This document shows, piece after piece, positions 5,143 to 44,089 of a stretch of 64,000 nt of DNA. Below the pieces are notes generated by a model. That model saw only the letters and a program-made list of their open reading frames with translations. It was not told the DNA's origin and did no database searches. The translations under genes were made by a program, and so were the position numbers. Position 1 is the stretch's first letter; every line of letters starts with the position of its first letter. Source of the DNA: Nitrospirota bacterium (GTDB lineage: Bacteria > Nitrospirota > UBA9217); contig DASPQB010000213.1 in the NCBI GenBank assembly GCA_035625205.1, positions 10-64,009 of the forward strand, read 5' to 3'.

Positions 5143-5321
5143 AAAGCTCCTTTATAAAGATGGGAGATTAATGGTTATATTACCAAATTCGACAGCCGGG
5201 AGTAAAGCCAAATATGGAATTCCCATTAAAATCCTCATTATGCACAGGGGCAGAGAGGTAAACCTAGAAAATTTCCGGATATTCCTCGCCTTGTCCATTT
5301 TGTCCCCCAAGATCTTTCTCC

Positions 5322-6152
5322 TCACGGGGTATTCAGCTTCCCAGCCACATATCTCCGGGCACGTTCGATGGCCTCCCGTATTGCAATGTTCTCCGGCAGG
5401 GCCGCGGCCATCTTATCGACGTATCTCCGCTCCTGGACCATCTGCAGTGAACTGGTGAAATTGAGGTCGTAGAGCCAGGTGAGCTGGAGCAGTTTAAAAT
5501 CGTTCAGGGTCTTAAGCTCTGACTTTAAGGCCATCCGTCCCTGAAGCAGACAGGCAAGGACCGTCGGCGAATAGCCCGGTGTGTCTGGAAGGCCGAGCGC
5601 AACGGCCGTAGCCCTGCACTCCTCCTCCTGATCGTAATACTCAATGAACACACGCAAGATATCAAGCTTGTCAGCGTCACGGACAATGTGAGTAAACAAC
5701 TGCGTCCTATGGTCCAGTGTATCGGGGAGCGTAAAAACATTGTGCAGAGTCACGGCGCGGATAATGAGGTTTTGTTCCCCTTCCGGCAACCCCCCTAACA
5801 CATCCTGTTCCAGCAATACCTTTGCCCCAAGTACCGCATGATTCGCCGAGATATCGTCGTCGAAGGTCTTGTAGTGCAGGTACTGTGGAAACCTTCCCAC
5901 GTCGTGGCATAGGGCGATCGCTTCGGCTATAAGCATGTCCTGCTTGTTCAGCTGCAGGCTGCGACCGATCCGCACGGCATTCAGGCAAACATTGTATGTG
6001 TGGTCCTTCTTAACAGCAAAGTTCCGCTGATCTTCCTCGACGTGTGTGGAAAAGTGGCCGCAATAGTCGGCAAACCAGTTTTTTAATACGGTAAGGTCTT
6101 TTTGATTCATCATTGCCGGTCCTGAAAATTCGTGATTGTACTGCAATGACAT
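5322..6152 (-). CDS. HD-domain phosphohydrolase-like protein
   Basis: 276 aa ORF with the H..HD metal-binding signature (ALCHDVGR ... DADKLD). The true start may instead be the internal MMNQKDL. Confidence 0.7.
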   Translation of the reverse strand: MSLQYNHEFSGPAMMNQKDLTVLKNWFADYCGHFSTHVEEDQRNFAVKKDHTYNVCLNAVRIGRSLQLNKQDMLIAEAIALCHDVGRFPQYLHYKTFDDDISANHAVLGAKVLLEQDVLGGLPEGEQNLIIRAVTLHNVFTLPDTLDHRTQLFTHIVRDADKLDILRVFIEYYDQEEECRATAVALGLPDTPGYSPTVLACLLQGRMALKSELKTLNDFKLLQLTWLYDLNFTSSLQMVQERRYVDKMAAALPENIAIREAIERARRYVAGKLNTP

Positions 6153-40904: not shown

Positions 40905-41201
40905 GACGGATGCACTTTATCAGCCCAGAAGACGTTTGTCAACTGAAACACTGGAATATCTGGAGCAATCTGCTAAACAGTGATTCGTTCACATGTAACA
41001 CACTTAAGCGTGGCTGGCTCGATCGGTAAGATTGCAAGCTTTTATTCGTTTACAGGAAGTCTGGCAAACATGGCGTATGACATCGGTCTTTTGGAGAAAT
41101 CCGCTCGCGGCATTACCGCTTGTTCTCTGTAGTGAGGGGTTTCTTTGCGCATTGGTGTTTCTCCATGTACAGCACAGGTTCTTACGCAGAAGGGGAGCTT
41201 T

Positions 41202-41933
41202 ATGCAGAACCACGCGCTGCTCGATCGAGTTAGCATAGTCCTCGTAAACACCAAAACGCCGGCAAATATCGGTGCAACCGCTCGTTGTATGATGAACATG
41301 GGCCTCACACACCTCGTTCTTGTGAATCCACCCCATGACGATAACGGCGATGCCTCCAGACTTGCTGCAGGTGCTGACCATATTTTGCAGCGAGCGCTGG
41401 TCTTTTCCTCGCTTAAGGAAGCAGTCACTGGCCAGAGTTTGGTCATTGGCACCTCGCGTCGGAAAAGCAAGCGACGGAAGAACATCCTATTACCGCGCGA
41501 TATGGCTATGAGCGTTGTATCTCTCCTTGACGAGAATAAGGTGTCGATCGTATTCGGCAATGAAGTTACAGGGTTGGAAATCCGCGACATCACGCTTTGC
41601 CATGAATTGATATCTATACCTTCTGCTGAAGCATTTCCATCGTTGAACCTTTCTCATGCTGTCATGATAGTTGCCTACGAGTTGTTTCTGGCCGCTGTCG
41701 CGCCCACTGCGCCTTCGGCCAGAAAACTTGGACGTACAGAAGATGTGGAGCTTTTTTATGACCGTTTGGAGGATACGCTTCAAGCTATTGGTTTCTTTAA
41801 TGGCCAGGATTCCATCCGCATGATGCATTCGCTCAGGCAAATCTTCGCCAGGTCCCGGTTAGACAGCAGGGACGTAAAAATATTGCAGGGAATTCTCTCT
41901 ACTTTCAACAGGGTGAGAAGAAACAGTGCTTGA
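41202..41933 (+). CDS. trmJ: tRNA (cytidine/uridine-2'-O)-methyltransferase TrmJ (SpoU/TrmH family)
   Basis: SIVLVNTKTPANIGATARCMMNMG ... IVFGNEVTGL are the SPOUT class signature. The start is chosen at MQNHALL (41202). Confidence 0.8.
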   Translation: MQNHALLDRVSIVLVNTKTPANIGATARCMMNMGLTHLVLVNPPHDDNGDASRLAAGADHILQRALVFSSLKEAVTGQSLVIGTSRRKSKRRKNILLPRDMAMSVVSLLDENKVSIVFGNEVTGLEIRDITLCHELISIPSAEAFPSLNLSHAVMIVAYELFLAAVAPTAPSARKLGRTEDVELFYDRLEDTLQAIGFFNGQDSIRMMHSLRQIFARSRLDSRDVKILQGILSTFNRVRRNSA

Positions 41934-42028
41934 TGTTACCGCCCAATAATCCTCTGAGTAAAATCTACACGTAATTTTATTCTTCTCCATCAAATTACAA
42001 TTATAAATTAATGCCTAGCTGCACATTC

Positions 42029-42058
42029 TGGTTGACAAGTCTTGTCGTTAACACTATA
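42029..42058 (+). promoter_or_regulatory. Sigma70 consensus-like promoter for the two-CW gene, embedded in TTGTCA/TGACAA repeats
   Basis: TTGACA-agtcttgtcgttaacac-TATATT (17 nt spacer) in a 340 bp AT-rich tract. The -35 forms the palindrome TTGACAAG-tc-TTGTCG, and TTGTCA recurs twice more within 40 bp. Confidence 0.45.
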
Positions 42059-42275
42059 TTATTGTCAAGAAATTAAATAATTGTCAGCCTGTCCGGCAGC
42101 GATTCTGATACCTATCTCAAAGAAAATTGCGGCAACCTTTTTTCTTTTAGATAGGGGGCGGGCAAATAGAACGGTTGTTCACGACGCAGTATTTCAGAAC
42201 GAAGACTTTTTTTGTGAAAGCGAAATCAATAGGTGGTCTGATCTCAATCCATACGGGAAGGATTATTAGAAAGAT

Positions 42276-42650
42276 ATGGGAAAGTTGAATTGCTGGGAGC
42301 ATAAGATGTGTGGACGCCAGCCGGGTGGCCATAAGGCTCAGGAACTCGGTATATGCCCCGTCACCGTCTATACGGACCTCGATGGCGTACATGGCGGTGC
42401 TAATGCTGGCAGGGCATGCTGGGCAATAGCCGGATCGCTATGCGGTGGCAAAATTCAGGGGACGTATGCTCAAAAACTGAATAACTGCTGGAGATGTGAT
42501 TTTATGAATGCCGTTAAGAAGGAGGAAGCACCGACCCCCCTTGGCTTTTCTGCCACGCGTCTCGGATTGGACAAAGCACTGGAAAAACAACGGCTCATGG
42601 AAAGCGACGCTCTTGCCCCTGCTAGAAGGGTAAAGGAAGAACAGCACTGA
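42276..42650 (+). CDS. Small Cys/Trp-rich protein with duplicated CW motif (two-CW-domain-like)
   Basis: MGKLNCWEHKMCGRQPGG...GICPVT...GRACWAIAGSLCGG...NCWRCDF: repeated C-W cores in a 124 aa ORF, convergent with ftsZ and with its own promoter. Confidence 0.55.
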   Translation: MGKLNCWEHKMCGRQPGGHKAQELGICPVTVYTDLDGVHGGANAGRACWAIAGSLCGGKIQGTYAQKLNNCWRCDFMNAVKKEEAPTPLGFSATRLGLDKALEKQRLMESDALAPARRVKEEQH

Positions 42651-42760: not shown

Positions 42761-43879
42761 TTAGTCCGCTTGACGTCTAAGGAACGTGGGTTTGTCCAGG
42801 TCCTCGCTGTCGATGCCCAACGCCTCGTTCTTGAAATCAAAGGACTCCTGCCTGCGCTTCGGCCGTTCTGCAACCTTCATGAAATCCTTCAGGTTCACCG
42901 GCCGTTTTACGCGCTCTCGGATGCCCTCTTCGTCAAATCCCGTCGCAATGACCGTAACCATTACTTCCTCGCTCATCACGGGGTTGATCACTGCTCCGAA
43001 AATGATGTTCGCGCCCGGATCTACCTCGTCTTTGATGATCGCTGAAGCCTCGTTAAGTTCGTAGATCCCCATATCGTTGCCGCCGGTGATGTTCATGAGC
43101 ACCGCGCGGGCACCCTTGATGGATCCGTCTTCCAGCAACGGGCTTGCGATCGCCTTCTGGGCCGCATCGATAGCCCGTCCCTCGCCTTTGCTGATGCCGG
43201 TGCCCATCACGGCCCTGCCGCGGTTCGTCATCACGGTCTTAACATCGGCAAAATCGACATTGACATATCCAGGCACCATCACGACATCGGAGATACCCTT
43301 GACCGCCTGCCCGAGCACGCTGTCCGCTAATTTGAAGGACTCGAGGAGTGTGGTTTTCCTTTCCGCGAGATTCAGCAGTCGTTCATTCGGAATCACAATG
43401 AGCGCATCGACGTTCTTTTTGAGTTCGGTAAGTCCTTCTTCAGCCTTATGCATCCTGGTCATGCCTTCAAAACTGAACGGTTTCGTCACCACACCCACGG
43501 CAAGGGCGCCGACTTCACGTGCAAGGTTTGCGATCACCGGCGCAGCGCCCGTCCCCGTACCTCCACCCATGCCTGCAGTAATGAAGACCATGTCGGCCCC
43601 GTCGATCGCCACTTTGATTTTTTCAGAGTCTTCAAGCGCCGCGTTACGTCCAATCTCAGGATTTGCGCCGGCCCCCCTGCCGCAGGTGAGCTTTGACCCA
43701 ATCTGGAGCTTGATTGGCGCTCGTGCCAGATCCAAGGCCTGCATATCAGTGTTCACGACGATGAACTGCACTCCCTTGATGTCCGACTGGACCATGGTGG
43801 ACACGGCATTGCTACCGCCTCCTCCGACGCCAATAACCTTGATAACAGCTGGGACTCTCTCTTCCTCAAACTGAAACAT
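42761..43879 (-). CDS. ftsZ: Cell division GTPase FtsZ
   Basis: [26 protein letters not shown] ... GGGTGTG tubulin signature. The start is chosen at the canonical MFQFE; the ORF-track start at 43987 adds 36 aa. Confidence 0.9.
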
Positions 43880-44089
43880 CCCTGTTACCCTCCTCTCCTC
43901 GCACGATTCGGTAAGCTCCGAATGCTTATGCAAGCTGGCAGCAAATTCTATGATATCCTGAAACCCGAGTTCTAGATTGTCGTCCATGTCACCTCCGGAT
44001 CTCGTGAATTAAGAGCAGTCTTCATTAATTGAAGGCGAGAAAATTAAATTAAGTATCGGCAATTTCCGCTTTTCCATTTCGCGATATCG

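Follow-up and report, generated by a model that had tools for sequence, protein, structure and literature searches.

A stand-alone two-CW protein of a Nitrospirota bacterium: a candidate cofactor-binding sensor module and the apparent survivor of a tandem gene pair

In a 64,000-nucleotide stretch of a Nitrospirota genome (contig DASPQB010000213.1, positions 10 to 64,009; hereafter the window) a small gene for a Cys- and Trp-rich protein of 124 amino acids lies between trmJ and ftsZ, behind a long AT-rich tract. The locus raises the question of what such a protein may do in the cell, and how it came to stand by itself at the end of a long leader. The first-pass annotation of this DNA had described an apparently tightly regulated, stand-alone CW-repeat protein which could be a metal or redox sensor module or a precursor-like peptide. 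The explanation that we favour, with somewhat better than even confidence, is that the gene encodes a cofactor-binding, sensor-type two-CW protein, that it is the surviving downstream (b) copy of a tandem pair, and that it is preceded by a conserved promoter and by a leader which is a relic of the lost partner.

The open reading frame (ORF) begins with ATG, and its product is identical in sequence to GenBank HYA87883.1, a record from a Nitrospirota metagenome-assembled genome (MAG) labelled 'hypothetical protein'. The gene and the parts of its product are the following:

42276..42650, + strand: two-CW protein gene, 124 aa, identified by NF045718 and by its substitution pattern, orthologous to the downstream (b) copy of tandem pairs
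42285..42524, + strand: two-CW domain proper, residues 4-83, aligned to positions 1-80 of the 80 in the NF045718 profile, with Cys 6, 12, 27, 48, 56, 71 and 74
42525..42647, + strand: subfamily-specific C-terminal tail, consisting of an acidic linker, GFSxTRLG (residues 90-97), a predicted helix (95-112) and a variable end

The identification as a two-CW protein, proposed in the first pass from the motifs NCWEHKMCG (residues 5-13), GRACWAIAGSLCGG (45-58) and NCWRCDF (70-76), was confirmed by the NCBIfam model NF045718 (two_CW_domain), which matched over its full length with E=6.6e-30 and 103.3 bits against a cutoff of 35. About 530 close homologs are 106-155 aa long and 66-99% identical to the protein, and the ratio of nonsynonymous to synonymous substitution rates (dN/dS) relative to the nearest orthologs is 0.036-0.068. 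Since the exhaustive search with the hidden Markov model (HMM) additionally collected 1471 clusters at 50% identity (851 of them at E<=1e-10), the ORF is a genuine gene under strong purifying selection, and it is conserved in related genomes together with its Cys/Trp positions. The family has already been modelled by NCBI and the window gene is a new member of it, with neither an assigned function nor a structure nor a publication found for the family: no paper on the two-CW domain or NF045718 turned up in the literature searched, and broader keywords led to irrelevant results only.

The conservation of individual residues was counted over 136 domain copies from diverse representatives of the family. 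The positions conserved in 95-100% of the copies are N5, C6, W7, C12, R14, G18, C27, G41, G45, R46, C48, W49, C71 and C74; thus six Cys are invariant (C6, C12, C27, C48, C71, C74), C56 is kept in 93%, and the window protein has all seven. Its two CW pairs are also preserved in the family, the first (C6-W7) in 136/136 copies and the second with C48 in 136/136 and W49 in 133/136, and a Pro follows C27 (C27-P28) in 125/136. The single CxxC of the domain is C71-x2-C74, while the remaining Cys are spaced 5, 14, 20, 7 and 14 residues apart. Specific to the Nitrospirota stand-alone subfamily are a third CW (C71-W72), the C-terminal GFSxTRLG motif with its helix, and an invariant His39 (a position held by Asn or His in the family at large); within this subfamily G90, F91, T94, R95, L96 and G97 are invariant, and such a tail was found in only about 12% of the diverse representatives. 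An internal duplication of the two CW halves was considered as well, and the halves do fall into the expected register, but their alignment lacks significance (hhalign E=0.2).

The domain is compact, of about 85 residues, with neither signal peptide nor membrane span predicted. Structure prediction from a 24-sequence alignment was unusable (predicted local distance difference test score, pLDDT, 46), which was remedied by a 108-sequence alignment: the resulting AlphaFold model has a pLDDT of 89.5, with block means of 85-96 across the domain, and its first 60 residues are loop-rich. A Foldseek search with this model found no fold match among PDB structures, and single-sequence and profile searches for PDB relatives gave no real one, the best ferredoxin match (E=0.35) being noise. 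The Pfam scan of the 124-aa protein likewise returned no family at E<=10.

A likely role is suggested by the company that the domain keeps. Among the 150 best family representatives 92 are stand-alone proteins of 160 aa or less; the domain is N-terminal in 35 multidomain proteins, C-terminal in 15 and internal in 2, and two two-CW matches occur in the remaining 6 (4 full tandem fusions and 2 apparently split or partial). When 30 multidomain members were scanned with Pfam, signalling modules were overwhelmingly dominant among the partners: PAS/GAF-HisKA-HATPase_c, cNMP_binding-Pkinase(-PP2C), NIT-MCPsignal, PAS-GGDEF, Guanylate_cyc, Response_reg, HAMP-STAS, PilZ and Usp, besides rhodanese and a rubrerythrin-like diiron domain. 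This spectrum is what would be expected for a plug-in sensory module, and the earlier proposal of a metal or redox sensor module fits both the fusion to many signalling output domains and the invariant Cys. With these Cys, a fold rich in loops, and fusions and neighbours of a redox character, a metal or iron-sulfur (Fe-S) cofactor and a redox or small-molecule signal appear the most plausible.

The same architectures bear on the second proposal of the first pass, a precursor peptide of a modified natural product, and on the related idea of an accessory factor of cell division. A small, Cys-rich, stand-alone product would suit a precursor, and the place beside ftsZ, which is conserved in many Nitrospirota, would suit a division factor. 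A precursor reading is nevertheless contradicted by the occurrence of the domain in large signalling proteins and by the confident, globular model; moreover, the protein is conserved over its whole length, highest at the Cys positions, instead of having a variable core behind a conserved leader, and no maturase is adjacent (the neighbours are TrmJ and FtsZ). As for cell division, the gene is convergent with ftsZ and not co-transcribed with it, and most paralogs are far from dcw genes. Either role is hardly credible.

The genomic surroundings of the family were analysed in a set of 82 loci, the window and 81 fetched ones; a scan of one genome per species had given 80 loci, nearly all from Nitrospirota MAGs and a few from cable bacteria, Rokubacteria and Omnitrophica. 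Related Nitrospirota have at least 4-7 two-CW genes in a single genome, and tandem two-CW genes occur in 30/82 loci; in the 64-kb window a second copy was looked for and none was found. Three contexts recur. In context A, that of the window, genes for an ABC1-family kinase (UbiB-like), an MBL-fold protein and TrmJ precede one or two two-CW copies, with ftsZ convergent. Context B combines a sigma-54 response regulator, a PAS kinase, one or two two-CW copies and chemoreceptors, and context C a divergent ADP-forming CoA ligase, a two-CW gene and a polyferredoxin. In four family members (P0121, P0122, P0123, also P0124) two two-CW domains are joined in one polypeptide, which mirrors the tandem gene pairs; fusions and gene pairs together hint that two-CW domains work in pairs.

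A sigma-54 promoter of the form TGGCA-N6-TTGCW is present within 200 nt upstream of 19/104 two-CW genes, where the background rate would give about 0.9, and in tandem pairs it is always ahead of the first gene. These promoters (L010, L011, L013, L017, L019-L023, L030, L033, L034, L036, L038-L040, L046, L060 and L073) are situated 39-153 nt ahead of the first two-CW gene, and many adjoin genes for an NtrC-type activator and a PAS kinase, which suggests that the small proteins are targets of adjacent two-component systems. The genes of contexts A and C have instead sigma-70 promoters scoring 10-11/12.

Some of these loci deserve separate mention. The chemoreceptor directly downstream of one two-CW gene (L053:6381-8084) has its own CZB zinc-binding domain, so that two distinct Cys- or metal-type sensor modules stand side by side. 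PAS proteins encoded just upstream of two-CW genes (L053:4528-5004 and 5318-5959, and in L042) end in a Cys-rich motif, ICCSCKNIRN..GYWEQ.E.Y...H....FTHGICPHC, which lies outside Pfam coverage, only the PAS part being matched. Two contigs labelled 'Betaproteobacteria bacterium MAG281' (L029, L043) show the Nitrospirota-type synteny of ABC1-family kinase, MBL-fold protein and two-CW gene, and their two-CW proteins are 72-77% identical to that of the window; both are probably Nitrospirota contigs with a binning or labelling error.

Other neighbourhoods raise an alternative, namely that the protein is no sensor but a small electron carrier of a new type, similar to ferredoxin or rubredoxin, which gives electrons to membrane redox proteins or takes them up. 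The paralogs of context C lie 34 nt upstream of a co-directional gene for a Fer4_5/Fer4 polyferredoxin membrane protein. In cable bacteria (L079:5986-8192, L080, L076 and L078; Candidatus Electronema / Desulfobulbaceae) the two-CW stop codon overlaps the start of a DsbD-like gene (DsbD_TM and thioredoxin-like), and this overlap would point to a translational coupling of the two-CW gene with that of a thiol-disulfide electron-transfer membrane protein. In P0212 and P0295 the two-CW domain is C-terminal to a ferritin-like diiron domain; classical rubrerythrins carry at this place a rubredoxin-type Fe(Cys)4 electron-transfer domain, so that the arrangement in P0212 would speak for a carrier, as would the strong, constitutive-type promoter of the window gene, which suggests an abundant protein. 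The multidomain partners are, however, mostly signalling domains and not redox enzymes, there is no redox partner near the window copy, and many paralogs are sigma-54-controlled beside two-component systems. We consider a carrier role somewhat unlikely.

Another alternative would keep the signalling context but dispense with sensing: the domain could be a structural, zinc-stabilised interaction or adaptor domain, in which the Cys merely hold the fold. Its presence at either end of signalling proteins, including after receivers, is compatible with such a function, and the tandem and fused pairs suggest self-association. A few family members also gave PHD or zinc-finger matches in Pfam, which are very weak (best E 0.018-0.09) and far below threshold. 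Zinc ribbons and treble clefts usually use two knuckles, but the two-CW domain has one CxxC knuckle only; in addition, the hosts (Nitrospirota MAGs, cable bacteria, Omnitrophica, Rokubacteria) may be mostly anaerobes, which would suit an oxygen-labile cofactor. A purely structural role is, in our judgement, unlikely.

In the favoured sensor-type explanation the domain would bind a metal cofactor, for which an iron-sulfur cluster is the most plausible candidate, and would act as a redox or small-molecule sensing module, which hundreds of other proteins have wired directly to kinases, chemoreceptors, cyclases and receivers. Where it stands free, the domain would pass on this same signal through contact with other proteins, probably via the C-terminal GFSxTRLG motif and helix, and possibly as a dimer. 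Several facts weigh against this explanation. The spacing of the Cys, with its one CxxC pair, fits no known cluster-binding motif; the protein is without a Pfam or PDB relative even at the profile level; and the literature searched shows a cofactor, ligand or partner for no family member. The domain is also found C-terminal to receiver, GGDEF and MCP (methyl-accepting chemotaxis protein) domains, and this placement would be just as compatible with a function in output or interaction. Divergent stand-alone members have neighbourhoods of varied content, although signalling genes are often among them, and in the window itself trmJ and ftsZ offer no functional hint. A wider generalization is that two-CW represents a class of redox or gas sensors, so far unrecognised, in which Cys ligate an Fe-S or other metal cluster and whose fold is not found in the PDB; anaerobic bacteria would use it widely as a modular input of kinases, chemoreceptors and cyclic-nucleotide enzymes, and the free-standing Nitrospirota copies would be tandem, possibly heterodimeric, sigma-54- or sigma-70-driven sensor-adaptors. 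This we put forward tentatively, as a possibility that falls short of being probable.

The second question, that of the long leader, could be answered from the DNA upstream of the gene. This tract is 342 bp long with a GC content of 37%, as compared to 52% for the window, so that the AT-rich region of about 340 bp recognised in the first pass, with its near-consensus TTGACA-17-TATATT promoter, was correctly described. It has the following elements:

41990..42028, + strand: AT-rich conserved block upstream of the -35 (TCAAnTTACAATTA...TAATG..TAG...ACATTC), aligned and partly invariant across syntenic loci
42032..42060, + strand: sigma-70-type promoter, TTGACA (42032-42037), 17 nt, TATATT (42055-42060), 11/12 match
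42130..42145, + strand: degenerate sigma-54-like element CGGCAACCTTTTTTCT, with the -24 GG kept and the -12 GC lost
42154..42246, + strand: relic of the lost upstream (a) copy, with Shine-Dalgarno GGGGG (42154-42158), start ATA (42166-42168) and about 80 nt of decayed 5' coding sequence
42255..42262, + strand: Shine-Dalgarno of the two-CW gene, GGGAAGGA (GGAGGA in relatives), within a block GGAGGATTATTAGAAAGATATG conserved in the window, L002, L001 and L004

The promoter is considered real because of its phylogenetic footprint: in almost all of the 22 syntenic context-A loci a -35 TTGAC and a -10 TATAnT occupy the same place in the alignment. The conserved block ahead of it may be an UP-element-like or an activator site. 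In most relatives the promoter is followed by an a copy of 131-150 aa and then by the b copy. It is among the b copies that the window protein falls, having 91-94% core identity to those of L002, L001 (L001b) and L004 (L004b), while the a copies form a separate clade with 73-78% identity to it.

What has become of the a copy can be followed in the nearest relatives. The ATA at 42166-42168 is ATG in L001/L002, and in the four-way alignment of the window, L001, L002 and L004 the window is devoid of about 370 columns of the a copy, with the junction near 42246/42247. In L002, the nearest of all, from the Nitrospirota MAG MFD03044.bin.1.139, the 684-bp gap between trmJ and the intact copy holds a frameshifted, stop-interrupted a-copy pseudogene (L002:5520-5960; tblastn summed E 1.7e-17). 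Positions 22-150 and 281-342 of the window intergenic region match positions 22-150 and 624-684 of this gap, that is, its ends only. By this alignment the pseudogene represents the intermediate state of a loss that is completed in the window. The comparison of the loci demonstrates that the ancestral arrangement was a tandem pair, of which the downstream copy survives as the window gene, that the upstream copy became first a pseudogene and then was mostly deleted in the window lineage, and that the sigma-70-type promoter originally served this upstream copy; the same promoter would now transcribe the window gene.

If the promoter is used, the 5' untranslated region (UTR) is about 208 nt long. 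The first pass had noted a 5' UTR of roughly 200 nt, but a dedicated regulatory leader it is not: it consists of the leader of the upstream paralog and of the decayed 5' end of that gene, the rest having been deleted. We regard it as the scar of a deleted tandem paralog and not as a dedicated regulatory RNA on account of the relic alignment, the lack of any Rfam match and an ordinary folding energy; a riboswitch or structured leader was rejected since no Rfam family matched at the gathering threshold, the sole match with E<1 was a meaningless microRNA model, and the fold z was -0.57. The statement that the gene sits alone holds for the window lineage only, where its stand-alone state is due to the recent loss of the tandem partner; most relatives have a tandem pair at the site.

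The degenerate sigma-54-like element at 42130-42145 aligns with the canonical TGGCA-N6-TTGCW promoters of L019, L020, L023, L026 and L030. An imperfect hairpin (42110-42157; CCTATCTCAAAGAAAA...TTTTCTTTTAGATAGG) overlaps this element and lies just ahead of the relic Shine-Dalgarno; strong in the window and in L004 but weak in L001 and L002, it is not robustly conserved. A 62-aa ORF (42081-42269, + strand), which spans leader and relic, is not conserved and was judged spurious.

The promoter region contains a further feature, which in the first pass was read as a set of operator sites:

42062-42067 and 42081-42086, + strand: two TTGTCA copies, the first forming an inverted repeat with the -35 TTGACAA

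With the TGACAA at 42033-42038, which is part of the -35, there are three TTGTCA/TGACAA hexamers within 54 bp. The cluster is present as described, and it is not random: by chance three sites within 60 nt arise with a frequency of about 1e-4 in shuffles of the tract and in 0/300 shuffles of the 64-kb window. This improbability would favour an operator for a dedicated repressor that tightly regulates the gene, and so would the inverted repeat formed by TTGACAAG at the -35 and TTGTCAAG just after the -10, which is kept in the window, L001/L003 and L002, with one mismatch in L004. One of the sites is, however, the -35 hexamer itself, and the half-sites that are conserved have their centres about 29 bp apart, a wide spacing for a dimeric operator. 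The internal TTGACAAG/CTTGTCG palindrome, although present in the window, is not conserved in L001, L002 and L004, and the third site (the second downstream TTGTCA) is missing from L002. Across 30 strong two-CW promoter regions there are 6 extra TTGTCA sites where about 2 would be expected, and most of them belong to the clade of the window; the family promoters show neither an enrichment nor a general presence of the motif, and a family-wide TTGTCA operator was rejected. The sites are not conserved beyond the closest relatives, where the intergenic DNA compared is about 70-85% identical and shared ancestry suffices to explain their retention; nothing beyond this close relatedness supports an operator in the window clade. 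The operator, and with it the tight regulation, is therefore quite unlikely.

On its two sides the gene is flanked as follows:

41145..41933, + strand: upstream neighbour, TrmJ/YjtD-family RNA 2'-O-methyltransferase (TIGR00050, 2.2e-58, 197.9 bits against a cutoff of 167), at the same place in 22 syntenic loci
42761..43987, - strand: ftsZ, convergent downstream neighbour at the end of the dcw cluster (TIGR00065, 3e-123)

Beyond ftsZ follow ftsA, ftsQ, ddl and murB. The window locus is an ordinary representative, and it is the family that is the interesting part: it is large and widespread, its fold is unmatched among solved structures, and its invariant Cys, together with its fusion to outputs of nearly all classes of bacterial signalling, make it a good candidate for an input domain, so far undescribed, that senses redox state or metals in mostly uncultured bacteria. 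The 124-aa stand-alone form, being small, strongly conserved and confidently predicted, is convenient for cofactor and structure work, while the locus itself shows clearly that what looks like a long, regulated 5' UTR may be left over from a tandem paralog that was deleted.

When compared with known systems, the two-CW domain resembles several of them in part. With the rubredoxin-like domain of rubrerythrin it shares the position C-terminal to the diiron domain in P0212 and P0295, a likeness that is positional only: against the two knuckles and about 40 residues of the rubredoxin-like domain it has one CxxC and about 85 residues, and the sequences show no similarity. WhiB-like (Wbl) proteins are small stand-alone Fe-S redox sensors of actinobacterial hosts. 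Like them, two-CW proteins are Cys-rich, of about 100-130 aa, present in several copies per genome and stand-alone, with a conserved C-terminal motif that possibly contacts a partner. The Cys pattern is different, however, cluster binding is only inferred, two-CW is widely fused to signalling enzymes, and the hosts recovered are Nitrospirota, Desulfobulbaceae (cable bacteria), Omnitrophica and Rokubacteria, not actinobacteria. The Whib Pfam model (PF02467) did not match the window protein at E<=10, nor was it among the 25 most frequent of the 36 families matched by 108 members.

The CZB (PF13682) and hemerythrin domains are small metal- or cluster-based sensory domains attached to chemoreceptors, cyclases and kinases. 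The two-CW domain has no sequence or profile relationship to them and differs by its six or seven Cys and by a fold unmatched in the PDB, but it is also a small cytoplasmic module with conserved residues of metal-ligand type, which is placed at either end of MCPs, GGDEF proteins and kinases and occurs free-standing as well. Within its own family, NF045718, the window protein shares the full-length match, both CW pairs and the six invariant Cys, to which its Nitrospirota subfamily adds the third CW, the invariant His39 and the GFSxTRLG motif with the helix.

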